DNA of 63,013 bases, counting the filler, from Globobulimina sp. (Eukaryota): NCBI GenBank assembly GCA_003354225.1. It is 25 parts of 25 records of this genome, joined end to end, with 100 filler letters (N's around TTAATTAATTAA, not from the genome) between each part and the next. Parts side by side here need not be neighbours in the genome. Positions count along the whole stretch, not along the records: positions 50,499 to 52,921 come from PIVH01006766.1; 24 more parts are not named here. The stretch is one strand, 5' to 3'. The position numbers were made by a program, and so were the translations under genes. The notes below the pieces were generated by a model that saw nothing but the letters and a program-made list of their open reading frames with translations, was not told where the DNA came from and made no database searches. This document shows, piece after piece, positions 6,846 to 62,894 of the stretch (within the stretch, counting starts at the first letter, position 1; every line of letters begins with the position of its first letter).

Positions 6846-7478
6846 TCAGACAATTTTTTGAATAATGATTGGGATTTGTGGCTTGGGTTTGGCCATCAAA
6901 AATGAGACAGCGCCGACCCCGCTCGACCAAGCAATGTCTTTGCTTTGGTAGGTTTGTGGCAAAGACAGGTCATAATTCGACACTAAATACGCCAAAATGA
7001 TTCGCAATTCCTTGAGCGCAATCTCACTGCCAGGGCAGTTTCGCTTGCCATGTCCAAACGTCACAAAAGACGGGTTTTTGTGGAACACACACTTGTGACC
7101 CCCGTCCTCAGATTTGAGCCAATTTTGCAAAACAATCTTTGCCTGCGATATTTGACCAAATTCGTTGTGATTAATGTACTGTCCATTCGTGAATATTTCG
7201 CAGTGTCTGGGCAGTTTATACTTTTTGCCATCCTTTGTGGTGACCCAAATGGGTTTGTCACACCAGTGCGGCAGTCCCGTTCGCAAAACCACAGAAATCC
7301 TCAGTATTTCCCACACTAACGCTCTGAAAAGTGGGATTGTGCGCAATACAGCCATGTCAAATCGAGTGTTGAGTGAGACCGAAGCGTTCCTTAATTCGTT
7401 CCTGACTTTTGACTGAATGCGAGGCTGTTTCGCCAATAAAATGAGTGCCCACTCGGCGGTGATGGCAGTCGTGTCTGT
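6846..7478 (-). CDS. Cytochrome P450, C-terminal part (5'-partial)
   Basis: I-helix remnant TDTTAITAEWA at the contig edge, ExxR motif (EILR), heme motif FGHGKRNCPG. Confidence 0.93.
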   Translation of the reverse strand, partial: TDTTAITAEWALILLAKQPRIQSKVRNELRNASVSLNTRFDMAVLRTIPLFRALVWEILRISVVLRTGLPHWCDKPIWVTTKDGKKYKLPRHCEIFTNGQYINHNEFGQISQAKIVLQNWLKSEDGGHKCVFHKNPSFVTFGHGKRNCPGSEIALKELRIILAYLVSNYDLSLPQTYQSKDIAWSSGVGAVSFLMAKPKPQIPIIIQKIV

Positions 7479-7611
7479 NNNNNNNNNNNNNNNNNNNNNN
7501 NNNNNNNNNNNNNNNNNNNNNNTTAATTAATTAANNNNNNNNNNNNNNNNNNNNNNNNNNNNNNNNNNNNNNNNNNNNATAGTAAGTCACAAATAAAAAA
7601 AAGGTTTACAG

Positions 7612-9570
7612 ATGAGCACTGTTTTAAACAATGGCTTCAATGACAACGAGTCACCACCAACATTATCACCACCAACATTATCACCACCAACATTATCACC
7701 AACAACAGCAGTGAGTCATGAAATAGTTGGAATTGGTTCATTGTTATTCGTAGTAATAATCTTAATAACCTTATTTTCATCTAAATTAACCGAACTATTC
7801 AAATTGCATTATATCAATCAATCGACCATATCAATTGTATTTGGTATGATTATCGGAATAATTATAACTTTTTTGCCATCATCAAACGTAAACTTATTCG
7901 AATTCGATTCTGAATTCTTTTTTTTCGTATTGCTGCCGCCAATAGTATTTAAAGCAGGATTTTCTTTAAAACGAAAGTATTTTTTCCGAAATATGTTTAC
8001 AATTTTACTATTTGCTGTGATGGGCACTATCATATCCACATTAATTATCGCATTTGGTTTATACACACTGTCCTTTTTACATATTTTACCATTATTTAAC
8101 TCCGGCAATCCATTGGAATGTTTATTATTTGGTGCTTTAATAAGTGCAGTTGACCCAGTTGGCACATTATCTGTTTTAGGCAATCCCTCCTTAAATATCG
8201 ATGCCACATTATATTCATTAATATTTGGTGAATCTGTATTGAATGATGCGGTCTCCATTGTATTATATAAAATATTCAATAATTACAGTCACAAACACAC
8301 CGCCATTTCATTTCAATCGCACTTCTTTTCTATAATCAGTCAATTTTGTGGCATATTCATTGCCTCTTTTTTTATTGGACTCATCATTGCTTTGTTTGCT
8401 TCTGTCATTTTAAAATACGGATTGCACGCATTCCTTATTCAAAAACCAAGCAATCGCAATGTAAACAATGCAAACAATGCATCGAATATCGAATTACAAT
8501 CAGCAAAAACAAATAAAACCACTACTAATAATTTATCAAATATTAGCAATGAAATGAGCATTGATGATGACGTAACCGACACTGTTGACAGTGACAAGGA
8601 AACGGAGACTCACAGCCACAGCCTCACTGAAAGCAATAATATTATTTATTTGGATGAATATCGACATAACGAAACGCATATCTTTGGTGAGTTGCCATCA
8701 TTAGAATTTTCAATCATTATTTTATTTGCATATTTAAGCTATAATTTAGGAGAAGTATTGCTTTTATCCGGCATTGTGTCGGTATTTTCTTGTGGCATTT
8801 GTATGTCACATTATTCGTGGTATAATTTGACATGGATTGCGCAAATATCGTTGCATCATATTATCATTGCATTATCAGAGTGTTGTGAAAATTTTGTGTA
8901 TGCATACTTAGGAATATCGACGGTTTTATCGTTAACACCATCCACTCGAAAATATGAATGGAATGTGCTATTAATTATATTTACAATTTTGCTGTGTGTG
9001 ATAGCCAGAGCTGCCAATATTTTCCCTTTGTCTGCCTTATCAAATACAAGGCGGAGAATAAAAATATCCACAAATATGCAAATTATGATGTTTTTCAGTG
9101 GTTTGCGAGGTGCGATCGCGTTTGCTTTGGCATTAAATATAAATACGCCACATTCGGATTTAATTATTACGACCACGTTATCCGTTGTTATATTAACTAC
9201 GATTTTGTGTGGATGTACTACGAAATATATGGTTGATAAATTACAATTAAATAATAATAATAAACATATAAACCCACAAAAGACCGATGATGATGACAAT
9301 TATTATAAATTGAATACGAATAAAAATAATAGCAATAAACAAGAAGAGAATGGAGAAAATATTGTGAGTGATAATAAAAGGATTGAAATGGATTCGAATG
9401 AACCATCAACATATACATTTACAGAGGAAAGCAACGAATATCATGGAATTCGAAAATATTGGCATCATTTTGACACAAAGTATATGCAAAATATGTTTGG
9501 TGGATCCACAAATCCATTCATCCAACATAAACATATTGGCATTTATTCAAATAGACAGCAGATCGAATGA
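7612..9570 (+). CDS. Sodium/proton exchanger, CPA1 family (NHE8/NHX-like)
   Basis: FFFVLLPPIVFKAGF, FGALISAVDPV, IFGESVLNDAVSIVL, SGLRGAIAFALA; about 12 hydrophobic segments. Confidence 0.95.
   Translation: MSTVLNNGFNDNESPPTLSPPTLSPPTLSPTTAVSHEIVGIGSLLFVVIILITLFSSKLTELFKLHYINQSTISIVFGMIIGIIITFLPSSNVNLFEFDSEFFFFVLLPPIVFKAGFSLKRKYFFRNMFTILLFAVMGTIISTLIIAFGLYTLSFLHILPLFNSGNPLECLLFGALISAVDPVGTLSVLGNPSLNIDATLYSLIFGESVLNDAVSIVLYKIFNNYSHKHTAISFQSHFFSIISQFCGIFIASFFIGLIIALFASVILKYGLHAFLIQKPSNRNVNNANNASNIELQSAKTNKTTTNNLSNISNEMSIDDDVTDTVDSDKETETHSHSLTESNNIIYLDEYRHNETHIFGELPSLEFSIIILFAYLSYNLGEVLLLSGIVSVFSCGICMSHYSWYNLTWIAQISLHHIIIALSECCENFVYAYLGISTVLSLTPSTRKYEWNVLLIIFTILLCVIARAANIFPLSALSNTRRRIKISTNMQIMMFFSGLRGAIAFALALNINTPHSDLIITTTLSVVILTTILCGCTTKYMVDKLQLNNNNKHINPQKTDDDDNYYKLNTNKNNSNKQEENGENIVSDNKRIEMDSNEPSTYTFTEESNEYHGIRKYWHHFDTKYMQNMFGGSTNPFIQHKHIGIYSNRQQIE
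7651..7700 (+). repeat. 15-bp coding tandem repeat (SPPTL x3) at the NHE N-terminus
   Basis: TCACCACCAACATTA x3 plus a partial copy. Confidence 0.85.
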
Positions 9571-10244
9571 ATGTGTGTATAATATGTTTTGTATTTACAT
9601 TATTTAAATCATGATTACCTTTTCAGCATTAAAAATTTAAAATCATTCGTTTCTCGATTATATCATTCGAACTGATCATTACTTACAGCCGTATTTCGTA
9701 TAATAAAAATCAAGTTTATATAAAATGATGTACATATGCATGCCAGTGACAGTGTATAACTTTGTGCCTTGAAGTGTGACTGCCACTAACAGCACTAACA
9801 GCAGTGTGTTGAGGATTTTATGCAAGTTTAGATTAGATGAACAGAGATATAATAAAAATAGATATAATCAAACACAGCACACAGATATAATAAAAATACG
9901 AGAATACTTTCCAAATGTAGTCATCTCACAAACAGAATGCGTATGTACAGCATCATCTAACCCAATTGCAAGATCGATTGTTGGATTACGATTCAAGAAA
10001 TCAANNNNNNNNNNNNNNNNNNNNNNNNNNNNNNNNNNNNNNNNNNNNTTAATTAATTAANNNNNNNNNNNNNNNNNNNNNNNNNNNNNNNNNNNNNNNN
10101 NNNNCAATTAATTTGTATTGATTATAATCAGTATAATGTAAAAAATTAAAACGCAAACAAAGAATTATTAATAATTACAACAATGCAAAAAATGATAATA
10201 AAAATACAACAGTACATAAAAAAAACGTATTTCGCCGCAAACAA

Positions 10245-12530
10245 TTAAGAAAAGTTCTTTTTGGGTGACAAGAAGCCCCTAAAAAACGAACTGTCTTTTT
10301 TATTTAATGACGCACTTTCTGAGGACGGCAACGGTGATGCCTCTTTCCTCGCACTCTTTTCTGAGCTTCTTTTCTGAGCCACAGAATGCACAAAATTTTT
10401 CAACTTTGTTTTCAATTTCTTGGGTGCCTGCAACAGCCGTTTATTGATTTTATTCCGCCCATCCTCCACCGACAAATGCAACAACAAGCTCCCTTTCAAA
10501 AACTCCTGCACAGTTTCCTGTGGATACAAAAACGAAAACGCCAGTTTAGCAAAATCAAGCAGTTCCTGATGGTTTTCCCTTAACACCACCCAGCATTCCA
10601 CACTAATCTCCACAAATTCCTTCCATTTCTTCCCCATTAACTTTGCCAAATCAGTGGTTATGGCAATTTTGCTCGTATCAATACCAGCCACTTTCTCTCC
10701 TAACATGTAACCAAAATCAATGTGAAATATAGTCCCCTGATCCGTCACCAACAAGTTATCGTAGTGCCGGTCGCGAATACCCATTATATACGCCGCCATG
10801 AAGGAACCCGCACACGTCGCGATTAGATTATTCATCACAGCCTCGGACAGCCGGTACTGTCCGCGCTTATTATTCTGCACATATTTGTCTGTGATGTCCT
10901 TCAAAGTCTGGCAGTTTGGGATCAATTCAATGATTCCGTAATCCGGTCCTAATGCAAAACATTTATAAGTCAAAGCTGCGATTTGTTTGTTATTATAGAC
11001 GCATTTATGTCCACTATCACTCCACAGATCATTCATGAACTTAAACATCGTCAAAACAGACGCGTCCCGTCGCAAATCATCGCCGTATTTCACTATAAAT
11101 GAGGTAATCGGCGTAAAGGCATTACGCAAATAACAGTCAACTAACAACGGCTTCGCGTTGGATTTATAAACTTTGCGGATTTCCAAACGTTGTACGTTTT
11201 TGTTGCCGCTGATAGGACAAACTAACTCTGTACACTGCGTGGCATTAAACACCTGATTTATATACGGATAAACCAACGGTAAGCGGAAGAATTCCACCAC
11301 ATTACAGCCGGTGTACTCAATCATATTCTCGTCGTCTTCGTTGCGATGCACTGTCGGCGATAACATCATACTCAAACGCTGCCCACTTTGCTTGCCATCA
11401 TCTTCGTCAATATCAAACAGCATCGCTTTCTCGTTCTTGATATATTTCGTATTGCTCGGCGTCTTTACGTGTCCGCCGGTGGGGCGCACCACGAAGGTGC
11501 CCAATCTCTGCAATTCCACAATGGACTCCATACAGACATGGTCCTTAAACAAGCGCGACACTGCAAAGCAGTCCCTATACGAATTCAAGAAGAACGTGAA
11601 ATGCTGCGTCAATTCGTAACTGTCGCACATGCGCTTCTGCAGCAAATACGATAACTTGTTGCGAAACTCCATCAAACCGTAAGGCAGCAAGGTCATCGCC
11701 CTGCAGATCACCGGCAACAAGTCGATCAACTCCGACATGGCACATATCTCAATATGCACATCCATCTCACCCATACGCAGCCCCTTCAGCAGCGCCACAT
11801 TCCTGGCGCTCAGCGACAAGCTCCGCTGTCTGCTGCTGGGCGCATCGCGCGGTTTGCACGGCATTCGCGGTTTATGGTCGTCCAAATCGGGCGTAATGGG
11901 CTGTTTGTCCAAGGACAGATGCTGGAAGATCTCGGTGCTGATGTCGTAAGTATGCGGTTTGTGCAGCTGCGATTGCGGCGTATGGACCATTAAGGAGTCG
12001 TACTCAAAGTCGTCGTCCTCGTCCGTGTCGTCGTCCATGTCGTCGCTCGGCGAGTTGCTGTGGTACGCCTGGTCGGGCGTGACGGGGATAAGTGCCATAT
12101 GGGCATTGTCCAGGGCGCTGAATGGAGGCACAGAGATTTTCACTTTGGACGCGTTTGCATTTTGTTGCGGAGAGCGCTCCCTTTCCCTGTCATCATCGCC
12201 CATTTCAGAGATCAGCTCCAAGCTTTCCATCTCGTCGCTGTTTTGCAATAAGATGTTGATTTTCTTCTCCTTGTCGCGATCAGAGGATTTCGGCGAGATT
12301 AAAGCATGCGTATCATCTAACTCTACTTGCTCCAAATCGACAATATCCAGTTTCTCGTCGTCTATATACATGGAACAGTGCGAGGATATCCTGTACAAAG
12401 CAGAAAAGCACAACACATACGTATAGAAATGACAAATTTGTGATCTTCTTCGCCATAAATATCGCCGTCTTCAGTGCTGGGCGGCAATATCGGCGTGTTT
12501 GTACCCAATGGATTTAAGTCGATGCCGTCC
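10245..12530 (-). CDS. Phosphatidylinositol 3/4-kinase catalytic-domain protein, 5'-partial; predicted intron 12362-12420
   Basis: KSNAKP, FIVKYGDDLRRD, MGIRDRHYDNLL, FHIDFGYMLG; a 59-nt GTATGT...TATAG intron joins the open upstream frame (HKFVISI-H-DEKL). Confidence 0.9.
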
Positions 12531-12630
12531 NNNNNNNNNNNNNNNNNNNNNNNNNNNNNNNNNNNNNNNNNNNNTTAATTAATTAANNNNNNNNNNNNNN
12601 NNNNNNNNNNNNNNNNNNNNNNNNNNNNNN

Positions 12631-12958
12631 GGTGGATGAAGTAACAAAACAGTTACGATTATTGACAAAAAAATATATACCTTTGCCAATTGCAGCATTT
12701 GTAAATCCAATGGGTTGGAACGATAGTAACAGTGATGGATTTTATCTGAACTGGAAATATGGACATATTGAAAGTAATATATTGCAAAATATATTCCGCC
12801 CAAAAGAAGATGAAAATATTTATATTTCATCAAGCAGTTATTCTATAGACCAGGCATATCATGCTGGTGGGATTTGGGCAGCCTTGGAAAATTTAAAAAG
12901 ACATTTTGATATTGATGAACCATTGAAAAATCATTCAGAATGTCCTAGAATATATTGA
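12631..12958 (+). CDS. C-terminal fragment, possibly a flavin-containing amine oxidase / L-amino-acid oxidase
   Basis: W..G..RP...NIYISSSSYS..QAY..GG...A resembles the C-terminal FAD-binding segment of amine oxidases; only ~108 aa are visible. Confidence 0.45.
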
Positions 12959-13195
12959 AAACACTTGTGTATATATATATATATATTTAAGTATACATAG
13001 TAGGACGTAAGTCCGATTCCAGACTCTTAGTTGCCGAGACGTTTTTAATTAGACATTGTGTATTTAAGTGAATTGAAAGTAAAGTCACTAATTGAGACCG
13101 ATACTTAAACAGAAATTTCTAGAAATTCTCCTTCTGGTAAAATATTTTTCGAATTAAAAAAGTTCACAACTATATATTTAATCTCACTGGAAAGC

Positions 13196-14772
13196 ATGCG
13201 CCCCGTACCATGGTTATTATTGCTAGTAATACTCTTCCAATGTATATTCATCTCACTTGGTGCAGATGACGAGGATGATGCAGATTTTGCAATCCTCGAT
13301 GAACTGGAAAGCAGTGAATCATGCGATGGTGGTTGTCGTACACCCGGTCGTTCTAAAACAACTAAAAAACAGCAATCAACCAAAACTAAACCAAAAGCAG
13401 CAAAAAAGTCAGCACAAGAACAACAACAAGAAATACAAGAAATGGTGGGACAATACCAACATTATTTGCAATACATGGAAGAGAATGACAACGGCGAAGA
13501 ACCTCTATCCATTGAACAATTTATGGAGTATATGAATTATATGCAACAGGGCCAAGCCGCAGGCCTTTCACCGGAAGAAGTACAACAAAAATATAAACAC
13601 GACATGGAGCAAAAAGCCATGCAGTCCCCCGAAATACAGCAAGAATTAAAAAACAATTTGCCAGATCTCACAGCTAAGTATGACGACATTGCTTACATTG
13701 GAATCTCAGACATTCCGTCCAGTGCATTGCCACCCAAATCATTCGGATGTGGCACTGTCGGAGTACCCGCAGGCGTATTTTATATGGGATCAGAGCATGA
13801 TGAGAACTATGAAGAAGACGGCGAGTCTCCATATCGCCGAATAAAAATATCCAAACCCTTTTACATGGACGCATGCGAGGTGACAAACGCACAATTTTTA
13901 CACTTCTGGAACGCCACAAATATGAAAGGTTTAATTTCTATATGTCAAATATACTCATTTTTGCTGATATTTACAGGTAAGACTGAAGCAGAGAAATATG
14001 GCTGGTCGTTTGTATTCGAATTATTGGTCTCTGACGAGGTCAATAAAGAGGTTCATAGTGCAGTACAAGGTTTTTTTTTAACTTTTTTGCTGAGTACGAC
14101 GCACAAAGTACTTCTATGAACTAAATAGGGGCAGAATGGTGGATTCCTATCCCGGGCTCGGATTTTCGGCATCCATCAGGACCGGATATGACATTTAATG
14201 ACAGATTGGACCATCCGGCAATGCACATCGGTTGGACGGATGCGAGGAAATATTGCCGTTGGAAGGGAGGTCGATTACCGACTGAGGCGCAGTGGGAATA
14301 TGCGTGCCGTGGTGGCTTAGAAAAGCAAAAGTTTCCGTGGGGTAATGACCGGACACCGAATCTAACGGAGTTTGGCACGTATTCTATGAACATTTTTACG
14401 GGCGAACCGTACTCGAAAGATGATGGGAAAGATGGTTGGCAGTCTACTGCCGTGGTTGGTAGTTATTCGCCGAATGGATATGGATTGTATGATATGACTG
14501 GCAATGTATGGGAGTGGACGGCGGATCATTGGAGTCCGAGACCAAAGGTAGCGCCAAAAGGGAGGCGATTGGTTGATCCGAAAGGACCAAAGCAAGGAAG
14601 GGATAGAACAATGAAGGGTGGCAGTTATATGTGCCATGCTACGACTTGCAGAAGGTACCGATGTTCGGGTCGCTCGCATGCCGAACCGGATTCGTCCACT
14701 GCTAATTTAGGGTTTAGATGCATTTATGATAAGGATCCAAACAAGAAGCAAAAAGACAAAAAAGAGTTGTAA
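13196..14772 (+). CDS. SUMF1: Formylglycine-generating enzyme (sulfatase-modifying factor 1); introns 13929-13976 and 14070-14128
   Basis: Signal peptide; FYMGS, EVTNAQF, TEAEKYGWSFVF, RLPTEAQWEYACRGG, NGYGLYDMTGNVWEW, GGSYMCHATTCRRYRCSGRS, NLGFRC. Splicing the two GT-AG introns gives continuous FGE sequence; C-terminal KKEL. Confidence 0.93.
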
Positions 14773-15593
14773 CTAAAGCTTTGCTAAAATTAGCTCAATA
14801 ATAACCTGACTACTTTTTCATTGCTTGTTGTTATTTTTTATCCCATAAACGTACAAAAAAAGCAGAAAGCATAAATATTAACAATAGGATTGAAGATGCA
14901 GCCAAAATTCGCGTTTCACTTTTTTTACATAAATATTTTACATGACATAGTTATTTTTTGACAAAATAACTTATCATTTTGTTTTCCATAATATATCTAA
15001 ATATCTATGGCTACGCATATCTGTAGCCGCCATCACTCATCGCTCACCACAATAAANNNNNNNNNNNNNNNNNNNNNNNNNNNNNNNNNNNNNNNNNNNN
15101 TTAATTAATTAANNNNNNNNNNNNNNNNNNNNNNNNNNNNNNNNNNNNNNNNNNNNTTATTAATAAAGAAATACAATGATACATTTTTAAAATGTGGATA
15201 TAAATTACAAATTGGAAAACAAAATCATGTTCAATTTGGAAGTTGCGATAGTTTTGAGATAGTAAAAGAATGATTGTTGTTATTTCTGTAAAATATATTT
15301 CCAATTCAATTTATGTATATTTGTCTTTTTACACTTTTGTGGTTGACATTTAAGAGTTTTTAAGAGGGTACGACTAGTTGGACTCATGAAATGAAAGTCA
15401 GTCAAATGATATTTCTTCAAACAATGTGTGATATACAAATTTAAAGCATAGATAAATTTTGAATATACATGATACACATTACACAGCAGCTATTTATTCA
15501 ACATAAAAAAAGGAAAAGGAAAACAAACACAAACGTAATTATAAAACAATGCAACTCTGGAAAGAAAAAAGGAAATTAAAAAAAAGCAATCAA

Positions 15594-17582
15594 TCATTCA
15601 TTTATATTTTCTAGATTTAATTTGTGCAATATCTCATCATTCAAATTATGCTTAAATGTATTGAGAATTTGTTGCGTCAAAAACAGCACTTTTTTCTCCA
15701 AACTTTGCTTTGATTTTTTCAATTTGACATACTTCTCATTTATAATATCAACGTGTGTCCGCGTCGACGTCTGTACATGCTGCGAATCCACAGCTTTCTG
15801 TCCATAAAACACGGCGTCCTGCGCCACCTGCCGCAATTGCGAGATTTGCTCTTTTTGGATTCTAATCTTCTTCTCGTAGCCCACTTTCATGGCTTCCATC
15901 TCCTGAATCAAACTCCTTTTCTCCTCATCCAAGTCCTCCACCATAATGGTGGCGATATCCCTTTCTTTATCGACCTCAGACTGCAATTTGAGTTTTAATT
16001 TTTTGACCTCGATCTCAGAGAATTGCTTCACAGAAAGGTTCTCCTCCTTCAATAATCCGATCTGATCCTCCAAATTATGCAATTTCCATTGATGCTGAAT
16101 CTCCATTTTATTGATTTCATCCACCAATGTTTGCTTGACGCGTTCTGACTGTTCATTGAATTTGCGGTTAAGGTTCGAACTCGAACTCGGCTCCTTTTTG
16201 TTGATCAGTTCCTGTTCGCGAACGTATTGCTGTTCGTGTTGCTGTTGCAAGCGAATTAACCTTTGCTTAAACTCGATTTCTTGCTGCGCCAACTGCGTAT
16301 TTTTGACAATCAACAAAGTGGACAGAGACTGGCATTCCGCGCTCATTTCCTCCAACTTACATCGTACGGTTATCTCTCGTTTATTTGTCATCCTTTCCAG
16401 CTGTTTGTATTTGTCCTTTTCCTCCATCAGCAAGCTCCAATATCTCTCCTTCAGCGCTTCCAAGTCCTTCTCATGCGACAACCGCACGGAATTCAGCAAA
16501 TGCTCAATCTCCGTCTTCTTGCGCTCATTGTCCACGCTCTCATTAATCATGTCGTTGACCGCCAATATCTTCGTCGGCAAATCGTTCAACAACGGCCGAG
16601 CGCGCAACTTAAGCTCCAATTTGTGGCGTAACTCCAAGGTCATATTCCTGCGGTGCTTGGCAAAGGCGCCGGGCGTGGAATATTCGCTCTTTTTCGAGAA
16701 TGAATACTGCGGCACCAGGCCGCGTGCGATCAGCTCGCGAGGATCCGGCCGATTATACAAATGGGCGTCCAATTTCTGCGCCAGATTGTCGCCCAAATAT
16801 TGGTCCAACACCAAACTGCGGCCTCTCTTCCGCTTAGTTTTGCCGTTCATCAACTTCCTTTTCTTGCGGCTTTGCATCTCGTTCTGCTCCATTCCGGGCA
16901 CATTATTATTGCTTCCACGCTCGCTCTCGAAAATGGATTGGAAGTCCGGCTCGTCTTTGATTTGCTGGATGATGCTCAACGACGGCGGCGACGGCGCCGG
17001 AGACATGATCAAAATGCCTAATTCGAACAGGCTTTCTCGCGGCGCGCGTTCCAACAATTTCAGCTCTAACTGAGCCATGCTGTCTTGCCGCCGTTTGCGC
17101 CGTTTGTCAATGTACAATGTCTGCGGCGTGATTGGCGAATAATTGCTCGCCGACTCCGCCTCTTTGGGGTCACGCGCTTCTGCCAAAGGCGAGGGAGTTT
17201 GCGTCAAAGTTTCGAATGCAAAGAGCGGCGAAACGGAGTTTGTATTTGCATTTATATTCATATTCATATTCTTTTTGGCGTCGTTGGCCTTTTTGTAGTT
17301 AAAACTGGCCATTTTGTGGGGACTCGGCGGCAACGAAGGCAGTATGTTCTTGTCCCACAACTGCTGTATTTCGGGCCGAACGGGAAGAAATTGCTCGAGT
17401 ACCAAACTGGCGCGCGATTTGGCAGTTTTTTCGATGCGTTTGCGTTTCACGCCGCGTTTGCTGACTTTGTTGACTTTGTGGCTGTTTTTGCTCAGATCCA
17501 GGCTCAAATTGGTGGTATCGATCACTTTCTCGTCGTCGTTGTCGGCGGGATGGGCGAGGTCGTGCGGCATGAAATATTTGTA
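15594..17582 (-). CDS. RPEL-repeat (G-actin-binding) protein with a C-terminal coiled coil, possibly 5'-partial
   Basis: Four RPEL-like units (LPVRPEIQQLWDKNIL, LLERAPRESLFELGIL, LYNRPDPRELIARGLV, LRARPLLNDL), then a long E/K/Q/L heptad region. Confidence 0.8.
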   Translation of the reverse strand, partial: YKYFMPHDLAHPADNDDEKVIDTTNLSLDLSKNSHKVNKVSKRGVKRKRIEKTAKSRASLVLEQFLPVRPEIQQLWDKNILPSLPPSPHKMASFNYKKANDAKKNMNMNINANTNSVSPLFAFETLTQTPSPLAEARDPKEAESASNYSPITPQTLYIDKRRKRRQDSMAQLELKLLERAPRESLFELGILIMSPAPSPPSLSIIQQIKDEPDFQSIFESERGSNNNVPGMEQNEMQSRKKRKLMNGKTKRKRGRSLVLDQYLGDNLAQKLDAHLYNRPDPRELIARGLVPQYSFSKKSEYSTPGAFAKHRRNMTLELRHKLELKLRARPLLNDLPTKILAVNDMINESVDNERKKTEIEHLLNSVRLSHEKDLEALKERYWSLLMEEKDKYKQLERMTNKREITVRCKLEEMSAECQSLSTLLIVKNTQLAQQEIEFKQRLIRLQQQHEQQYVREQELINKKEPSSSSNLNRKFNEQSERVKQTLVDEINKMEIQHQWKLHNLEDQIGLLKEENLSVKQFSEIEVKKLKLKLQSEVDKERDIATIMVEDLDEEKRSLIQEMEAMKVGYEKKIRIQKEQISQLRQVAQDAVFYGQKAVDSQHVQTSTRTHVDIINEKYVKLKKSKQSLEKKVLFLTQQILNTFKHNLNDEILHKLNLENINE

Positions 17583-17682
17583 NNNNNNNNNNNNNNNNNN
17601 NNNNNNNNNNNNNNNNNNNNNNNNNNTTAATTAATTAANNNNNNNNNNNNNNNNNNNNNNNNNNNNNNNNNNNNNNNNNNNN

Positions 17683-20107
17683 TTAAAGACAAAAAACAAA
17701 GAATACAGTCTGTTTGGAGGAGTTTTATAGAAAAAGGGCTATCTTCGCCTGGAGCTTCAAAGAAGAAGACCTCCAAAGCTGTGGCCATGACATCAACGGA
17801 TAAGTTTTATAGATATTTGCAACAATTGAATCAAACTAAATTACCGATTGGAATAAAATCAATTAAAATCATATCACATAATTACCCACAAATCGCCAGG
17901 GAGCTCGAAAACAAAAATGATGAACAAAAAGTTGCAGAGCTGGGACCGGAGCAAAAAGTAAGTGTAGTAACGGATGAATTTGTCATTTGTGAGAAAATTG
18001 GTGGTGGGGACACAGTGTCCATTGCGTGCAAGAAAGAAAACCGTGATTTGAAATTAATACCTTTTGGCTGTGTGGCAGCACACATTTCATCGTCAGATAA
18101 GTTAGAATTTACTGTATTGAATGGCAGGGCGTTCACATTTTTACCATTACCGATCAAAACCGGATTACCCATCCATATAAATTCATATTTTGAGCTGAGT
18201 GCGAATCGTCGTGATTTGTGGTGGGGACTGGATATGCATGGCGTGGGAGCACAGAGACATAAATGGAACGAGTCATTGTTGCGGCATGTATTAGCACCGT
18301 CGTACACATATTTGATACGATATATTGCAAAGACATATGCTAAAGACTTACCTGCGATAATTAATAAATACTATGGATTGTTCCCGCAGCAAGTTAATAA
18401 TGGCCCATTTATGGAATTAATGCAATCTTTTTATGCGAATATATCCAATGTAAATGTGCTGTATTCTCCTTTGAATGATGGTCAATGGCTATCGCCAGCA
18501 AAATGTATTGCTTTTATGGATGAGACGGAACCTGAACAGAAATCAAATGAGGAGGTTGATGTGAAGGATAATAAGCGCATTAATAAAATATGTCGTATCC
18601 GATCTATATTGTTAAAATGCGATATATCGGTGGTTACGTTGCAGAAATTCTTGATTGAACAACTAACCAAAGCCGGATTGAATGAGTATTCATCGATGTG
18701 GCTGAGAACAAAGTTTTTATCCTCATTTGATAAACGAATGGAGAGCTTATCATATGAGGATTGTATATTTTTATTAGGATTGTGTTTAGAAGATATTACT
18801 GCCAATAATATTGCGCAAATTTATAATTTACCGATATTGCCATTAAGTAATGGCACATTTACGCGGTTTTTGACGAATAAAGTGCCAACCAATAAACGTG
18901 TTTTTTTTACCACTGATGAAAAGTTTATAGATTTGTTAAAAACTGCGCCGACTACAATAAAACAGGCGGAATTCGCTAAAAAATCGGAGAATAAACAGGC
19001 CAATGATGGTAATATTAGTACGCGAGTGATTGCGTCCAATCTACCATCAGTTATAACTGCTAAATTATCCAATGAAGATATCATAAAATATACCAATATA
19101 TTTGTTGCCAATCATGAGACATTAATAGAATTATTACCTACTTTATTATGCAAGCAATGTTCCACACAATTTGAAGTAATATGGGATGGAAAATCACCGT
19201 CCAAACGATGGATAAATGAGTTATGGATTTACTTTAAAAATGTCCAAGATATAATGGAACGGTTAGCAAAGTTATGTGTTTTACCAGTTATTACATATTT
19301 GCCTCATTCATATAAGTCGGAAAAGAAATTAATTCGACCAAATATAACTGACAATGTATATATTGATATCCATCAATTTGATGAACCTTTAAAACAATTA
19401 TTATATCAAATTGGTGTTTGTTGCATTGATAATAAACATATTGTAAACAATATCGCTGCAGGAAAATATATCTATCCCTCGTCCATTATTGGCATATTAA
19501 AAGCGATAAATCAATTAATCAGCACTCATTTCGATGGTATTTCCAGCACATTTTGTACGAAAATGTTTAACCAAAATGTAAATAAACATCAACGACGTTC
19601 ATTACGCCAATTTATAGTGCGACAAATTGAAAATCTACAATATGATATTATAAATAACAGCAAACAACGCAAAACTATCTCAAATTTTAAATCCATTATC
19701 CGAGCTTTACCCATTTATGAAATATTTAGCGCAGAAACGGACGAAAAAGAACATAAAAATGATAAAAATGATATCAATTCGTTTCTGAGTTTAACCTCTA
19801 ACCAAAATGATTTAATATGGCCACCGTCCGATGTCAACATTAATTCCTTTGTTAACGATCCAAAAAACAAAAATATTTCTATTTTATTTCTAAAAGTCGA
19901 AGGCGATGGTAACAGTTACAACAAATTGTTACACTTTTTAGGCGAGAAACAATTATCAAAATCAGCCTTTTATAACGATTACATATTGCCAAAAATGGAG
20001 GAGTTTTCATCCAATACACGTGACGCTGTGGTACTGTCTTTATTGCGTAATTTGCAATCATTGCAAGCCACAGATCCCGATTTTGTTAGCAAATTATTAA
20101 AACATCC
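17683..20107 (+). CDS. Sacsin-like protein, internal fragment
   Basis: GRAFTFLPLPIKTGLPIHINSYFELSANRRDLW...WNESLL is the sacsin repeat-region signature; LPILPLSNGTF; frame open to the contig end. Confidence 0.88.
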
Positions 20108-20207
20108 NNNNNNNNNNNNNNNNNNNNNNNNNNNNNNNNNNNNNNNNNNNNTTAATTAATTAANNNNNNNNNNNNNNNNNNNNNNNNNNNNNNNNNNNNN
20201 NNNNNNN

Positions 20208-20706
20208 GTTAGCAGTGGTGGACAATGTAATAGATTGGGGGGCATTTACCAAGTCATTGTCAAAAATAGTGGGGGAAGGCATATTGTGTGTAATGGTGTT
20301 ATCCTCTGACGGCACATTGTTATCAAGCTTCGGTGTTAAATCAAAGTCTGCAAAACGCATCATTCCGCCTTTACTGACCTCAATATGGAGAATTACATCG
20401 GATGTTGGCAAAAAGTTTGTGGATGCTCGCGGTTTGGAATTAATGTTTGTAAATTGTAAATTGGGCCGTATTGTTGTATCGGTGATCCCCGACGACCAGC
20501 CATATTTTATTTGCTTGTTGGCTCAAAATGAAATGGAATTGGGTTTATTGAAAGTGAAACTTGAATTAATCACCGATCAATTGGCAAAAATACTGTTTAA
20601 CGAAGATGATGAAGACGAGGAGGATATTGATAATGAACAAGACATTGTTCCGCCAACAAATATGCCATCAAATGCAGAAATTCAATCCCTTGGCTCTTGC
20701 ATGTGA
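20208..20706 (+). CDS. Roadblock/LC7-domain protein (LAMTOR2-like)
   Basis: GILCVMVLSSDGTLLSS...LLTSIW...LELMFVNCKLGRIVV...ELGLLKVKLELITDQL; acidic tail. Confidence 0.75.
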
Positions 20707-20796
20707 CTTGCAATTGGACAGTAAATCAAACGCCTTGTGTGCAAGGAGAAAACTGTTGAAAAAATGGAATTAAATTATTAAAACTTTTATTTTCTA

Positions 20797-22059
20797 ATGT
20801 CAACACTTCTGGTCGAGGATGATGGTGATGGTGATGGTGATGATGATATCCACGAGCCACCACTTAAAAAATTCAAACCAAATACAATTGAAATTAGTAA
20901 ACCAAGAGCAATTGTATTGGATATCGAAGGGACAGTAATAAGTAAATATTTTTATGAGGATGTCTTATTACCATACACTAGACATAATTTTCGAGAGTTT
21001 CTTTATGAAAACAGTGATTTTGAACATATCAGCAAACGGATTGAAATGATAAAAGAGGAATATTTTCAACAATATCCAGAAAAGGAAGAAATGTTTAATC
21101 ATTATTTTAATCAAACTGCGTACAATCAATATATTCAACAAATAACCGACAGACAAAAGAATGCAAATATTATTATTAATAACAATGAAAATGAACAAAG
21201 TGTGATCATATTAAATAATAATAAGAACATTCAAAATAAGAATAAGAATAAAAATGAAATTATTGAATTGATTGAGGATAATAATAATAATAAAAACGAG
21301 AGCAATAAAAGTATAGAAATAATAGATGTCGATGAAGATATTGACATTGATACAAATGAGAAAAAGAGGCAATTTGTGGATATCATAAGCATTGATGATG
21401 AGGAGGAGGAGGAGGAAGATGTTGATATAGAATCGGCAGAAGAGTCAATATCAAGGAGCGAGTTGACTGAGTTCAGTGTAATGAGTAAAACAGAATTTTA
21501 CAGAGAAAAACAGATAAATTTATTGATGGATATTATTGATGAATGGTTTGATAATAATATAAAAATAAAAGCAATGCAATATTTACAAGGCTTGATCGTC
21601 GAAAATGGATTTAAAGGAAAAGAACTAAAATCAAATATTTATGAGGATTGTTATAATGCGATTAGAAAATGGAAAGAAATGAATAATATCAATATTTATA
21701 TATATTCGCACGGCACCAAAGCTGCTCAAAAATTATTATTTAAATATTCAGAATATGGCGATTTAAATAAATATATTTCAAGGTATTTTGATAAAAATGA
21801 TATTGGAAATAAGAAATATTGGAAATCGTATCGGAAATTATTGAATGAGATAGAAAGTGAGCAATGGGAGGATGAGGAGGCAGCTTCTGATGTATTGTTT
21901 ATATCTGATAATGTTTTGGAGTTAGAAGCAGCGGAATCGATGGGATTTAGAGTCATCCAAAGTGTAAGGGAGGATACAGTCGGCCATGCCGATTATTGTC
22001 AATTTTCTGATTTTAATCAGATTGAATGGACTGAAAAACATATTGATTATATATCATGA
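20797..22059 (+). CDS. ENOPH1: Enolase-phosphatase E1-like HAD hydrolase (methionine salvage) with a long low-complexity insertion
   Basis: AIVLDIEGT, LQGLIVENGF, IYIYSHGTKAAQKLLFKYSEYGDL, GNKK...SY, VLFISDNVLELEAA. Confidence 0.85.
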   Translation: MSTLLVEDDGDGDGDDDIHEPPLKKFKPNTIEISKPRAIVLDIEGTVISKYFYEDVLLPYTRHNFREFLYENSDFEHISKRIEMIKEEYFQQYPEKEEMFNHYFNQTAYNQYIQQITDRQKNANIIINNNENEQSVIILNNNKNIQNKNKNKNEIIELIEDNNNNKNESNKSIEIIDVDEDIDIDTNEKKRQFVDIISIDDEEEEEEDVDIESAEESISRSELTEFSVMSKTEFYREKQINLLMDIIDEWFDNNIKIKAMQYLQGLIVENGFKGKELKSNIYEDCYNAIRKWKEMNNINIYIYSHGTKAAQKLLFKYSEYGDLNKYISRYFDKNDIGNKKYWKSYRKLLNEIESEQWEDEEAASDVLFISDNVLELEAAESMGFRVIQSVREDTVGHADYCQFSDFNQIEWTEKHIDYIS

Positions 22060-22379
22060 TTATAATAATCATAATCACACAAAGTAATCGTTTGTTGCGT
22101 GTCAGACATGTTGTTTTGTTGTAAAGTCATATTACGATTTTCGAAAGGGTTTACCTATTTGGATCCTGTCCATAAATTTAAGCAAACCATTAATAATAAC
22201 GGTGTTCTTCCACAAAAACAGCAAATAACAAATATTTACAACTATTAACTTCTCATATTCTTGTTTTACTATTTATTAATATTACTCAGAGAAAAAAATA
22301 AAGAAAAAAAAATAACAGTTATTAAACGTTTAAAATTTCTTCAAAACTTAAGAAAAACAAAGAACTGTGAAAAAAATAT

Positions 22380-22632
22380 TTAAACCTCTTCATAATCTGC
22401 CACCACATTCAACTCCGCATATTCTTGTTTTACTGTTTTATTATAATTATAAAAAACAAAGGCACCGCACGCCACACACATACAGCCGGCCATACAAATC
22501 AAAATCAGAAATATTGTAAAAATATCCAATAACATCAATGCCAACAATGGATTGTTCGAAAGCGAAGGCGGTCTACGCACCACAGGCACCACCGCCCTAT
22601 CTCCGCCATATGCATTATACGCATCATATCCG
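22380..22632 (-). CDS. C-terminal fragment of a single-pass membrane protein
   Basis: One hydrophobic helix (LLALMLLDIFTIFLILICMAGCMCVACGAFVF) followed by a short tail. Confidence 0.5.
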
Positions 22633-23050
22633 NNNNNNNNNNNNNNNNNNNNNNNNNNNNNNNNNNNNNNNNNNNNTTAATTAATTAANNNNNNNNNNNN
22701 NNNNNNNNNNNNNNNNNNNNNNNNNNNNNNNNGGCAAAGCATGTAATTTTAAACAAGGCAAATACAGAGCTGCAATAAGTGCATATATCTCCGGATGTGC
22801 AGTAGAAATAATTGATTGATTTGTGTCATTTATGTTTAATATAATGAGAATACCGATGTTCTTCAGATATCTCAACACTCTTAAAATTTTCCAGTCTTTT
22901 AAATTGCAAGGCGTGAAAAAGTAACCAAACATCATTTTAATACGCGTCATGGTCTCAGACTAAAAGTGATTTGTAATCAAATATATTAAAAAAAACGTTG
23001 CGCAGCAAGTGACAATAATGTCATTTAGATTGAACCAAGATAATGGTTTG

Positions 23051-36977: not shown

Positions 36978-38237
36978 GGCTGATTTGCTTTTTTTTGTAT
37001 ATTCGCAACACGAATTTCGGAGGATTTGCTGTTTTAGTCCGGATTAAATGGGTGAAGAGTTGAAGAAGAGAGGGTTGAGTTTTTTAGAGTTGATGTTTTT
37101 TGTAGATTTTTACACCTTGTGTTAATCGTATCACCCATCAACACCACGACTTTTTCGTATGTTTCGTAGTTTAAATATTTAATTACTGCTACAGGTACAA
37201 TATATTGCGCAATATAAGAACAACCCCTTAGTTATAAGACCGATTTCGAATATGACGAATCACAACTTAGTTTACAAAGAACTGATGTATATCATACAAG
37301 AATAACCGCAGCAATGCACAAAGTACCACCCGTTCCATTAGGATTAGATGGGACATTTGGTATGGTTTTAATAGCTACGCTTGGAACAAATGGTTACTAT
37401 CCATTATGTTTGCAGATGTAATATTACTCCGATCATAATATTCCGTTATTTCATGAGCATCCAAGCTGTAACTATTGGTGGTGAGTAAAAATATAAGCTT
37501 TTAATTCAATTTTACTGGCTTTTTGTGTGTGGTCTGGCTTTTTGTGTGTCGAATACATGAATTTCAATACGATATGAATTAGAATATAATAGATACAATA
37601 CAAAAAGAAAGAAATTGAACATGAAACAAAAGCATTCAAACTTAAAATCAATGAAGAAAATAGAGTTAAATTAGAAAAGCAAGAAACTGAATTGCAACAA
37701 TTAAGAATTGGAAAATTAGATATTATAAAAAAACATTGTTTTAATGAGTTTAATAAATTATGTGATGCAAATTGCGTGAANNNNNNNNNNNNNNNNNNNN
37801 NNNNNNNNNNNNNNNNNNNNNNNNTTAATTAATTAANNNNNNNNNNNNNNNNNNNNNNNNNNNNNNNNNNNNNNNNNNNNTCAATGTTTTTATTTTGAAT
37901 AATCTGTAAAAAACTGTAAATTCAAAGAGTTTACAGTAAGAACAGTAATTTCAAACTGAAAAGCAAAAAGTTAAATGTTACCTTTAACATTTTATTATTA
38001 ACCTATTTTCCTTCCAATTGGTTACAATCATTTGATGAACAAAGATGTGGGATTTTCTACTGTGAAAGTTGTAGCTGAGAATATCTTAACCACTTCAATT
38101 AACAACAAATAACAATCCTATATTACAACAATCAAAGTCCACATTCGAATTAATTAAAGAGAATTCATTGCAACTTTAGATAATAATTCGTATTCATTAA
38201 TTCAACAATTCACATATTCAACGCGTCGGTTTCCTTA

Positions 38238-52074: not shown

Positions 52075-52620
52075 GTGATGTTAAATATGTATTCCATGGA
52101 ATGGACACCACGGATAATTTTGTCATTAGTTTGTATTGTCATATATTTGAGTGAATTAATATTTTATAAACCTGATAAAATGCTCGATACACAATTCGGT
52201 CGGTATTTAGGACCCAAAAAACACTTTTTTAGATGTATGATAAATACACTATTGCTGGTTACTTGGAATAAAGAATTCTATGTCTCTGATGAGCCCCTTT
52301 CTATGTTGGAAAGAATTGGTTATTTTACATCAATATTTGGAATGTCACTACGTATTTATTCAAAGTATATTTTAGGGAGATACTTTACCTACGCATTAAC
52401 TATCAAGTCAGAACACAAAATTATCGATTCTGGTCCATACGCAATTGTGAGACATCCTGGCTATGCAGGAATGATGTTGTATGGACTTGGCAATGATCTA
52501 TGGACTCCAAATAAATTATATATTGCATTAAACATTGCAGTCATTTGGATGTTAACAAAAAGAATTCCAATTGAAGAAGCAATGTTAAATGATCATTTAT
52601 CGAAAGATAACAGTTACATT
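52075..52620 (+). CDS. Isoprenylcysteine carboxyl methyltransferase-like protein whose 3' end runs into a repeat element
   Basis: LGRYFT...HKIIDSGPYAIVRHPGYAG...RIPIEEAML; the usual terminal Y..Y....R..P motif is absent, and the ORF continues into the repeat to a stop at 52680. Confidence 0.85.
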
Positions 52621-52885
52621 AGACTATGCTCAACTAAGTTTTTTTCGAGACCGTTACATTTCAAGTCTACTTATGTCTAAGAGGATTGCTTGCCAGCAGC
52701 GTGGATTAATAAATAGTACTCACTATATTGCCTCTACTGTCTCTCCATATGGTTTATAATTCATTTGAAAAATAAACCTCCACATAAAAAATCGATAATG
52801 GTAAATGCAACAAAAATGGTCGCATAGCTCAAGCAGAGCACTGGATCGATCCAGAAGATACAGGTTCAAATCCTGTGGCGACAGC
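52617..52885 (+). repeat. Dispersed ~270-bp element, copy 1 (conserved ~200-bp body + tRNA-like 3' module)
   Basis: Highly similar to 61177-61454 on a different contig, from CATTAGACTATG to GCGACAGC. Confidence 0.92.
52818..52883 (+). ncRNA. tRNA-like cloverleaf lacking a normal anticodon loop
   Basis: GGTCGCA TA GCTC-AAGCA-GAGC A CTGGA-TCGA-TCCAG AAGAT ACAGG-TTCAAAT-CCTGT GGCGACA; A-box-like and B-box sequences present. Confidence 0.75.
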
Positions 52886-53046
52886 AAATCATTATGTAAT
52901 GGATTTGGATTTTATGGAATGNNNNNNNNNNNNNNNNNNNNNNNNNNNNNNNNNNNNNNNNNNNNTTAATTAATTAANNNNNNNNNNNNNNNNNNNNNNN
53001 NNNNNNNNNNNNNNNNNNNNNAAACAGTTTTCGAGCTAACTACTAG

Positions 53047-60590: not shown

Positions 60591-60697
60591 ATATGGTGTC
60601 AATGTTTGAAGATACCAATTTGGCCGCAATCCACGCCAAACGCGTTACTATTATGGGAAAAGATATTGCTTTGGCAAAACGATTAAGAGGAAATTAA
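60591..60697 (+). CDS. H3: Histone H3 (divergent), C-terminal fragment
   Basis: Hand translation [34 protein letters not shown]. Confidence 0.95.
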
Positions 60698-60767
60698 ATT
60701 AAATTAAATATTTGTAAATCACATCTTGTTTATCTTTGTAAATATTCTTAATTTTTATTTTTTACCA

Positions 60768-60787
60768 GGTGTTTTTCAACACCACCA
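60768..60787 (+). promoter_or_regulatory. Histone mRNA 3' stem-loop
   Basis: GGTGTT-TTTC-AACACC-ACCA, 70 nt after the H3 stop; 6-bp stem, TTTC loop and ACCA flank. Confidence 0.85.
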
Positions 60788-61176
60788 AACTATATATTCC
60801 ATTTTCAATAAGTTCTTGACACTGTTTCTTGAGTTCACTAATTCGAGGGCTGGGCCATGCATTCGACGGTGATGTTTATTTTAGAGACTGGCCGTTCATG
60901 GTGATTTTACTAGCAATTACTACCGATTTTGATTAGTACTGTTTGAAAACGTCATTACTTAATGGTAATGTGTAAAATTGTGTATTTTTATTGGAATTCA
61001 AAATATTCAGTACATTTCCAAATTGTTAATTCAATATCTTTTGCCAATGTTCTCAATGTCGCCTACACAAGGCATGATGAATGAGATAATAAGCGCACGA
61101 ATAAGCACATTAAATACGGTTAAACATATAACATATTATATGTTATGAATAGTACCATCGAAAATATACACGCAAT

Positions 61177-61454
61177 CATTAGACTATGTCCAACTAAGTT
61201 TTTTTCGAGACCGTTACATTTAAAGTCTACTTATGTCTAAGAGGATTGCTTGCCAGCAGCGTGGATTAATAAAAAGCCCTCACCCCATTGCCTCTACTGT
61301 CTCTCCATATGGTTTATAATTCATTTGAAAAATAACCCTCCACATAAAAATTCACTAATGGTAAATATCACAAAAGTCACACAAATGGTCGCCTAGCTCA
61401 AGCAGAGCACTGGATTAATTCAGAAGATTCAGGTTCAAATCCTGAAGCGACAGC
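61177..61454 (+). repeat. Dispersed ~270-bp element, copy 2
   Basis: Highly similar to 52617-52885, with scattered substitutions and a short insertion before the tRNA-like part. Confidence 0.92.
61387..61452 (+). ncRNA. tRNA-like cloverleaf lacking a normal anticodon loop, copy 2
   Basis: GGTCGCC TA GCTC-AAGCA-GAGC A CTGGA-TTAA-TTCAG AAGAT TCAGG-TTCAAAT-CCTGA AGCGACA. Confidence 0.75.
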
Positions 61455-61758
61455 GATATCGATACAGATGAAATATTTGGGAAAAGAAAGAGAGAAATAT
61501 GGCAACCTGTATGTATTGAATATGAGAAATCATCATCATAAATTAAATAAATTTGTTTGTGTGCAACTCAGTGCAAGGAGAGATATCTGACTGTTAGGAA
61601 ATAGAACGTATAGATTCGTTTTTTTTTCGCAATACAAAAATAATAAAATTAACAAGCAACAAATCCAAAAACAAAGTATAGATAACGACGACCATGCACT
61701 AGGTCATCATCATCATAATTTCTCATTTTTTTCATGTTTTCTTATAATTCACATTTTC

Positions 61759-62523
61759 GACAACGGGTCAAAGTTACAAAAAAAAGACGCTTTATAGTCA
61801 AAAAGTCATTTCTACTTTAGAAAGTCATAAAGTCATAAAGTCATAAGTATTTGATAGTAGAGACTAGATATATCATAAAGTCATAAAGTCATTATCATAA
61901 ATCCATAAAGTCATAAAGTCATTATCATAAATCCATAAAGTCATAAAGTCATAATTCCAATCCATACAGTCAAAAAGTCATAAAGTGATAAAGTCAAAAA
62001 GTCATAAACTCCACTTTTGACTTTATGACTTTATGACTTTTTGACTTTATGACTTTAAGGAGGTAGTGTTATGGATTTATGACTTTTTGTCTTTATGGAT
62101 TTATCACTTTATGGCTCACTATACCTACCACCACACTCCACCACCTCCACTAGTATGCTACCACCACCCCACCCCACCACACTAGTATGCTACCACCACA
62201 CCACCACATCCCTGTCCTAAACTATCCTAGACTGCCCTAGACCGCCCTGCTATACTAACATAGATTACATGGATTTAAAGTCATAAAGTCAAAAAGTCAA
62301 AAAGTCATAAAGTCATATCATAAAGGCATAAAGTCATAAAGTCATAAAGTCAAAAAGTCAAAAAGTCATAACTCCTTATGACTTTTTGACTTTATGACTT
62401 TTTGACTTTTTGACTTTTTGACATTATGACTTTATGGGTTGGAATTATGACTTTATGACTTTCGAAAGTACAAATGACTTTTTGACTTTAAAAGCGTCTT
62501 TTTTTTGTAACTTCGACCCCCTC
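61759..62523. mobile_element. Non-autonomous foldback/MULE-like element with long TIRs, internal AAAGTCAT arrays and a 10-bp target-site duplication
   Basis: About 70-bp imperfect TIRs (GGGTCAAAGTTACAAAAAAAAGACGCTTT... and ...AAAGCGTCTTTTTTTTGTAACTTCGACCC); TCACATTTTC at 61749-61758 and 62524-62533. Confidence 0.85.
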
Positions 62524-62812
62524 TCACATTTTCCAATACAATTATTTTTTTATTCTGTTTACAGTGGCGAAAGCATGGCAAAGTTATCTCACCTCTGCCG
62601 TGCTTTGGTCGCGACATCGCATTATATAGATATTGGTGCCCTTCTTTTGCGTCGGCAAAGCATATATTATGCACAGAAGTGATTGCTTCGACCACTAATT
62701 TGCACAATTTCCGTCGAGCTTCCTTCTCTAAATCGATCAAATAATTTAAATTTCCAATGCTCGATATCGTATTTCGTTTGTTTTTTTTTGCAGGCGTTGC
62801 GGCACTTTCATG

Positions 62813-62894
62813 TCATCGCCGTAGGATTCGAACCTACATCCATTTTGTTTGCATTCCATTCAAACCAATGCTCTGCCAATTGAGCTAGGCGACC
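62813..62894 (-). pseudogene. Degenerate tRNA / SINE head related to the two tRNA-like modules (possible GAA anticodon, broken anticodon stem)
   Basis: GGTCGCC TA GCTC-AATTGGCA-GAGC A TTGGTTTGAATGGAATGCAAACAAAATGGAT GTAGG-TTCGAAT-CCTAC GGCGATG A. Confidence 0.7.

Follow-up and report, generated by a model that had tools for sequence, protein, structure and literature searches.

We analysed a stretch of 63,013 nucleotides of Globobulimina sp. (assembly GCA_003354225.1; 25 parts joined end to end, filler included, hereafter the window) and show that it contains two copies of a real, many-copy, non-coding mobile repeat with a folded, anticodon-less look-alike of a tRNA near its 3' end. The element is most likely an unusual composite relative of the short interspersed elements (SINEs) rather than a new kind of gene. 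Specifically, we give a little short of an even chance to a composite, non-autonomous retroposon family with a SINE-like make-up that is not a classical SINE. The two copies, A (52617-52885) and B (61177-61454), were found on separate contigs and are 88.5% identical over 278 columns (E 2.4e-102); a sequence comparison of their flanks reveals no relation to one another. The initial annotation, which had noticed about 270 bp common to two unlinked contigs, is confirmed on this point. Its description of a dispersed, multi-copy and non-coding unit holds as well, and both the depth of the Logan contigs described below and the flanks disfavour a segmental duplication.

It might be argued that the likeness results from chance, from an assembly artefact or from a simple segmental duplication, given that the assembly is fragmented, the libraries were probably amplified and only two copies are present in the window. 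A match with an E-value of 2e-102 between copies whose flanks are unrelated, however, together with the presence of the element in the separately deposited contig sets PJEL01 and PIVX01 and in three sequencing runs, effectively refutes this explanation, which we consider extremely improbable.

Abundance and layout of the element

No copies other than A and B were found in the window by self-comparison, with Rfam or with our own model of the tRNA-like module (R1). An Rfam scan of positions 1-50000 returned nothing at E<=0.5, and R1, applied with filters off to 68,461 bases, gave no further modules. Further copies were obtained from one metagenome scan with a 22-base pattern of the module, which yielded four contigs (L001 to L004). 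Scans of viral contigs gave 0 matches with the body pattern and 0 with the module pattern. The scan of contigs from prokaryote genomes returned a chance match in a bacterial coding region (L005) and a decayed copy (L006). The contig of this decayed copy, PIVX01000733.1 (541 nt, AT-rich), is filed under a gammaproteobacterial metagenome-assembled genome; since it carries foraminifer-type repeats, it is probably a mis-binned eukaryotic contig.

The abundance of the element was assessed on the Logan contigs of four runs (X1, X3, X5 and X6), aligned on 52300-52921, where depth stands for summed word depth and not for a copy number. In X1, 290 contigs (of 1,718,462) give an element depth of 6,700-22,800 over 52615-52887, against 6.76 for the unique flank. 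Element depth amounts to 10-165 in X3 (28 contigs, unique flank 0) and 24-280 in X5 (20 contigs, unique flank 14.1); the one contig from X6 reaches 0.5-3.8 and covers 52804 onward only (unique flank 0). These runs are not independent, because X1 and X3 represent one sample, probably the source of the window, and the X5 flank agrees with the window in every letter. On its 5' side the element has a sharp edge, with a jump in depth at 52615 in X1, X3 and X5 and with five X1 contigs of unlike flanks that begin at 52618. A given single-site variant can be present in as many as 20 X1 contigs, so the number of distinct copies is at least in the dozens.

The unit consists of a 5' body, the tRNA-like module and a tail that depends on the subfamily; module and tail also occur without the body. 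On the plus strand of copy A, the non-coding body of about 200 nt (52617-52817) is followed by the module (52818-52884) and by an A-type tail (52885-52921), which is truncated by the contig end and is also found in L004 and L002. In copy B, likewise on the plus strand, the body (61177-61386) aligns to that of A and has a 9-nt insertion directly upstream of the module (61387-61453), after which comes a tail of 21 nt (61455-61475) that is unrelated to the A-type. The alignment of A and B comprises 184 matches, 17 mismatches and 9 gap columns in the body, and 60 matches and 7 mismatches in the module. All six frames of the body are closed, which rules it out as coding sequence, and a known small RNA is ruled out by the lack of any Rfam match even at E<=10. 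Scanning for bacterial promoters and terminators gave nothing informative. The fold of the whole element is no better than that of shuffled sequences (z -0.84) and 0 of 43 predicted pairs covary, so the pairings earlier proposed within the body find no support.

The further contigs show how the parts are combined. Over 254 nt L004 has 97% identity to A, and it also contains the tail downstream of A, and L002 is made up of a 22 nt leader, the module and the A-type tail, with no body. The L002 tail holds 24.6 copies of a 12-nt unit, TGGATTTTATGG, of which A and L004 have 1-2; in copy A one unit lies at 52906-52917, and the window contains no other exact match to it. Depth in X1 is 883-1379 for the A-type tail versus about 11,000-15,000 for the module. 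The 21-nt tail of B recurs letter by letter after the module in two X5 contigs, which then diverge. The initial annotation had the similarity stop 2 nt past the acceptor stem. This is correct for A against B, but the tail of A is shared by L004, L002 and Logan contigs, so that in the A subfamily the unit continues past the module; the similarity ends at that point only between different subfamilies. Similarly, the module is the tRNA-like part near the 3' side that had been described, but not the true 3' end in all copies, given the subfamily tails, one of which is a 12-nt tandem repeat.

Modules without a body, as in L002, in L003 (where the sequences on both sides are unrelated) and in one X3 contig with a different upstream sequence, might alternatively indicate that the tRNA-like sequences are a gene family transcribed by RNA polymerase III (Pol III), upstream of which the body landed once, the pair then being amplified together. 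The stretch directly upstream of the module fits this, being A-rich, variable in length (5, 16 or 25 nt) and lowest in depth, as does X5, in which the depth over the initial part of the body is 2-3 times that over the module. Another family of tRNA-like sequences, Z, moreover has the look of a true Pol III gene. Its representative in L004 (101-164, plus strand) is 64 nt long and scores 49.5 bits with the Rfam tRNA model. The acceptor stem is perfect over 7 bp, the D loop has 5 nt and is of the short style seen in the module, the anticodon arm consists of a 4-bp stem and a 4-nt loop, and T6 stands directly after the discriminator; by these features the sequence resembles an intact Pol III gene encoding an anticodon-less tRNA-like RNA of 64 nt. 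On the other hand, the four body-bearing copies share one identical junction of body and module, which means that the composite must still spread as a unit. B, L001 and L003 have no nearby T run, and the acceptor stem of the module is weakened. A Pol III gene family at the root of the element thus seems quite unlikely.

Copy A lies in a gene. An open reading frame (ORF) of the ICMT family (52075-52680, plus strand; Pfam ICMT 1.6e-15) reads its end from the element. Identity to the closest homologue (P0060) is 66% up to the residues ...SYIR, at about nt 52623 and thus a few bases into the element; from there P0060 continues for 14 more residues, whereas the window has 18-20 element-encoded codons and then a stop. 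Since the homology stops at the element start, the element is located inside the 3' end of a conserved coding sequence. Copy A accordingly interrupts a conserved methyltransferase ORF, which has lost its final 14 conserved codons. One X5 contig matches 52300-52620 without difference and then has 70 off-element letters, and could be an empty site. Some 370 nt upstream of copy B lies the 3' end of a histone H3 gene, with a histone stem-loop. The C-terminal end of the H3 ORF falls within 60591-60809 (stop at about 60697), and the stem-loop match at 60763-60809 scores 29 bits, under the gathering score of 34.

Structure and constraint of the tRNA-like module

The modules of A and B form a cloverleaf of 67 nt. 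With the Rfam tRNA model RF00005 (gathering score 29), 39.3 bits are obtained for 52818-52884 in A and 35.7 bits for 61388-61452 in B; R1 gives 98.4 and 95.5 bits, respectively. The RF00005 scores of L002 (39.3 bits) and L004 (37.7 bits) are comparable, and the modules of L001 and L003 have no match to this model at E<=0.1. In both window copies the cloverleaf is the minimum-energy fold (z -3.51 for A, -2.82 for B), in agreement with the tRNA-like cloverleaf of the initial annotation. The arms of copy A are an acceptor stem of 5 bp, a D arm of 4 bp with a 5-nt loop, an anticodon arm of 5 bp with the loop TCGA, and a T arm of 5-6 bp with the loop TTCAAAT. In copy B the anticodon loop is TTAA, the T stem reads TCAGG/CCTGA, and one pair of the anticodon stem is G-U. 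The anticodon arm of 14 nt with its 4-nt loop and the short D loop without GG (5 nt in A and B) are therefore present as had been reported.

A functional tRNA is not what this module encodes, as its anticodon loop, its D loop and its acceptor stem show. Over six modules of the family, the anticodon loop is 4 nt in every case, which leaves no 7-nt loop to carry an anticodon; the D loop is AAGCA throughout, without GG; and only five standard pairs are left in the acceptor stem, pair 1:72 being mismatched in all six copies and 7:66 in five. None of the six was called by ARAGORN. Ordinary tRNA genes do occur in Foraminifera, with a cluster of seven reported for Astrammina (PMC3079666). Judged by the box motifs TRGCY and GGTTC, as quoted in PMC10886601, the module has half of box A (TAGCT, without YGG) and the complete GGTTC. 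The three letters after the discriminator are CAA in A, L004 and L002, CCA in L001 and CGA in B, while a change of A to C at 52886, which gives CCA, is seen in 11 X1 contigs with about 42% of the depth there. This CCA could perhaps be a relic of a CCA-tailed RNA at the origin of the family.

The sequence at 62813-62894 had been proposed as a third related copy. It belongs instead to a separate family, X (62812-62894, minus strand), which shares with the module only the 5' strand of the acceptor stem, the D arm and the T loop. It scores 40.3 bits with the Rfam tRNA model and 45.1 bits with R1, and at 62813-62894 it is called as tRNA-Ser(tga), the only ARAGORN call among the three tRNA-like sequences of the window. 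In its anticodon arm a stem of 8 bp carries a loop of 9 nt. L002 contains another member of family X (438-519), which has 94.7% identity over 76 nt and unrelated flanks. Families A and Z have the reduced anticodon arm in common; the arm of X is abnormal in another way. Next to the X sequence of L002, at 351-435, a 37-nt unit is repeated 2.3 times, with a GC-rich hairpin and then a T run.

Is the fold under constraint? Five anticodon loop sequences occur among the six modules (TCGA, TTAA twice, TCAA, TTGA and TGCG). Pairing is found in 88.1% of the cells; sliding the 3' partner strand lowers this to 29-43%. Pair 49:65 of the T stem occurs as A-U in three copies and as U-A in the other three, without unpaired intermediates, and L004 combines an A-like body with the B-like pair. 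The T-stem covariation put forward earlier thus stands as far as the swap from ACAGG/CCTGT to TCAGG/CCTGA is concerned, but amounts to one double change in six copies and is mostly not significant. All nine variable module sites of the four intact copies (A, B, L004 and L002) are in a loop or junction, change G-C to G-U, or belong to this one compensated pair; the two G-U changes fit the plus strand only, since on the minus strand they would be A-C mismatches. Five module sites vary in at least 10% of the depth of the Logan contigs, namely position 7, the two positions in the middle of the loop, the T loop, and one site where C changes to U and the pairing with G is kept. Structure-preserving change on the plus strand is therefore observed in the four intact copies as well as in the Logan contigs. 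L001 and L003 contain stem-breaking changes and have no cloverleaf fold, which counts against constraint. Taken together, the pattern would suit source copies that are under selection and inserted copies that afterwards decay freely; this is suggestive, not proven. A split of, or insertion into, the anticodon loop, hinted at by L006 and two X1 contigs, was also considered and dropped, L006 looking decayed and having deletions.

A fold that is kept on the plus strand, together with the layout of a non-coding body and a tRNA-like part on one strand, is reminiscent of MALAT1 and NEAT1. The mascRNA fold has a reduced anticodon arm, like that of the module. By analogy, putative cleavage by RNase P at 52817/52818 would end a body transcript of RNA polymerase II and free a CCA-tailed anticodon-less RNA; C-C/A-A after the discriminator, with CCA in L001 and the 11 X1 contigs, is in line with this. 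The element is, however, dispersed, high in copy number and inserted in a gene, unlike a conserved single locus, and genomic copies run past the module with common tails. Nor is there significant structure or a U-rich/A-rich arrangement resembling the MALAT1 triple helix upstream of the module, where we find a z of -0.84 and a lone T7 run far upstream. MALAT1 and NEAT1 are described, in PMC12941219, as the only long non-coding RNAs that make use of the tRNA-processing machinery. We regard an arrangement of this type as very unlikely.

Mode of spread and comparison with known elements

If the element is a composite retroposon, as we prefer to think, its history may have been as follows. A tRNA-like RNA ending in C-C/A-A would have become joined upstream of a tail-only retroposon, resulting in a short form that L002 resembles, and the body would later have been added at the 5' end. 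Copying would proceed via plus strand RNA, by a reverse transcriptase that is supplied in trans and starts in the tail. Source copies would have to keep the tRNA-like fold in their RNA for recognition, for stability or for end-formation by tRNA-processing enzymes, and inserted copies would then decay freely. The forms A and B look like the short form (a tRNA-derived head plus repeat tail, as in L002) with a further addition at the 5' side. The gain of small-RNA-derived sequences at the 5' ends of SINEs is documented in Kojima 2015 (PMC4494074), so that the label 'reverse SINE' of the initial annotation is not needed.

Several features are those of tRNA-derived SINEs: the element is short, non-coding and interspersed in many copies with unrelated flanks, and it has a tRNA-derived part with TRGCY and GGTTC motifs as well as a short tandem-repeat tail, the 12-nt repeat of the A-type subfamily. 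Its modular make-up, with subfamilies that differ in tail and 5' additions, is similar to that of composite SINEs in PMC4494074. A classical SINE differs in that it starts with a 5' head containing an internal Pol III promoter. The L002 short form could be organized in this way, but in the long form some 200 nt of unrelated sequence, including a T7 run, stand ahead of the tRNA-derived part. Also unlike tRNA SINEs, the element keeps a cloverleaf, in which the anticodon loop is cut to 4 nt.

A number of observations weigh against a retroposon. Because of the T7 run at 52639-52645 on the plus strand, and A5-A6 runs that are T runs on the minus strand, Pol III should not cross the unit either way; with these stops the long form is not drivable from the internal promoter of the module. 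Of 500 shuffles, 26 reach the covariation score, and compensated pairs are no more numerous than in the shuffles. Between A and B the module does not change more slowly than the body (7/67 versus 17/201 mismatches), contrary to the expectation that the cloverleaf would decay more slowly than its flanking body. The target-site duplications of SINEs have no counterpart at B, the only copy with both flanks (n=1), and a partner long interspersed element (LINE) has likewise not been seen. Longer copies with a reverse transcriptase, transposase or similar ORF, for which the initial annotation had advised a search, were not encountered: among the 46 ORFs scanned in the window there is no reverse transcriptase or transposase, and there is no long ORF beside the elements of L001-L004. 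Furthermore, the true number of copies may lie anywhere between tens and thousands. Finally, some of the spread has taken place at the DNA level. The two direct copies of L001, separated by about 880 nt, are both broken at the same place by the same inverted-repeat element, and the ends of L003 (1-119 and 1155-1273) are 119 identical bases, which points to an assembly path that is circular or tandem and 1,154 bp long. The 5' truncation of L001 had been considered as a mark of retroposition, but this was dropped since it really is the inserted inverted-repeat element.

The last point leads to a fairly unlikely alternative in which the element spreads as DNA, be it as the long terminal repeat (LTR), or solo LTR, of a miniature LTR retrotransposon of the TRIMp3/Helenus type or as another DNA transposon or tandem-duplicating unit. 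TRIMp3/Helenus elements have tRNA-like sequences in their LTRs, which in the case of Helenus contain TRGCY and GGTTC (PMC10886601), to be compared with TAGCT and GGTTC in the module. Here too a non-usable tRNA-like sequence sits inside a repeat of a few hundred bases. The paired direct copies in L001, with their common insertion, are what two LTRs made from one template would look like, while the identical ends of L003 and the missing target-site duplication at B would suit DNA-level spread in general. An LTR, however, should have TG...CA ends, and the element begins with CATTAG... and finishes with ...ACAGC. No primer-binding site of the TGG type follows the first copy of L001 and no clear polypurine tract precedes the second; B, L004 and L002 lack a second copy in about 390-1560 nt downstream; and a duplication of 4-5 bp is absent at B. 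As judged by eye, A and B have neither Helitron-type ends (TC...CTRR) nor terminal inverted repeats, the latter arguing against a DNA transposon.

Tags with a tRNA-like fold at the 3' terminus ('genomic tags') are present in plant RNA viruses and in the Mauriceville retroplasmid of Neurospora. In these systems, as in our element, a tRNA-like fold followed by C-C/A-A stands at the 3' end of a replicating unit or close to it. The element differs as a nuclear, dispersed repeat with further common sequence after the tRNA-like part, and, unlike for the genomic-tag systems, we know of no reverse transcriptase dedicated to it. A speculative and rather improbable reading is that Foraminifera carry anticodon-less mini-tRNAs of 64-70 nt, with family Z as a Pol III gene for one of them, whose fold and CCA would serve retroelements of this genome as a 3' tag. 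RNase P/Z and the CCA-adding enzyme would produce such a tag, which would then prime or guide reverse transcription; if so, it would be a nuclear counterpart of the viral and retroplasmid tRNA-like tags.

Foraminiferal genomes are almost unexplored, and in the openly accessible literature we found no published description of SINEs or tRNA-like repeats in Foraminifera. The present family suggests that a tRNA-derived fold may persist by selection without its decoding parts, inside a composite mobile unit that disrupts genes. A role of the anticodon-less fold at the RNA level is plausible, and would, if shown, link tRNA-processing enzymes to retroelement biology in a new lineage. In practical terms, the modules would inflate or confuse tRNA annotation in these genomes, as they score above the Rfam tRNA threshold.

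Neighbouring repeats and setting of the window

The inverted-repeat element inserted in L001 is located at 84-119 and 1232-1267 (element orientation). A 37-nt match of 92% to its terminal repeat is found on another contig of the window (37983-38019).

A second repeat family is represented at 61571-61745 in the window and at 178-330 in L004, 385-541 in L006 and 927-981 (minus strand) in L002. It is characterized by a conserved GAGATATCTGAC box, a stretch of the CAAACAAAAAC type, a hairpin ATGATGGGCAT...ACTAGCTCATCATCAT and T-rich runs. Near B, in L004 and in L006 (3/3), a tRNA-like sequence on the same strand precedes it at varying distance. The hairpin repeat, which was also considered, is a separate repeat family, and its strict pattern gives 0 matches in the window. 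A recombination site at ATCGAT was considered and dropped, the motif being common in the window (39 found versus 27.7 expected).

Further downstream, 61760-62520 is occupied by a large foldback of repeats of the (GTCATAAAGTC) type with many inner arms, the outer inverted arms of which (61778-61838 and 62445-62505) are 85% complementary. Its matches to plant miRNA precursors in Rfam are spurious and far under the thresholds.

The 25 parts of the window measure 2,423-2,426 bp each and range in GC content from 0.29 to 0.45. The ORFs are long and of eukaryotic character, with domains that include HECT, PI3/PI4 kinase, Na/H exchanger, PARP-WWE, GST, P450 and glycosyl hydrolase 47. They point to a foraminifer-like rhizarian as the source, as does the best named relative found for the HECT ORF, a protein of Reticulomyxa filosa with 54% identity over 92% of the query.

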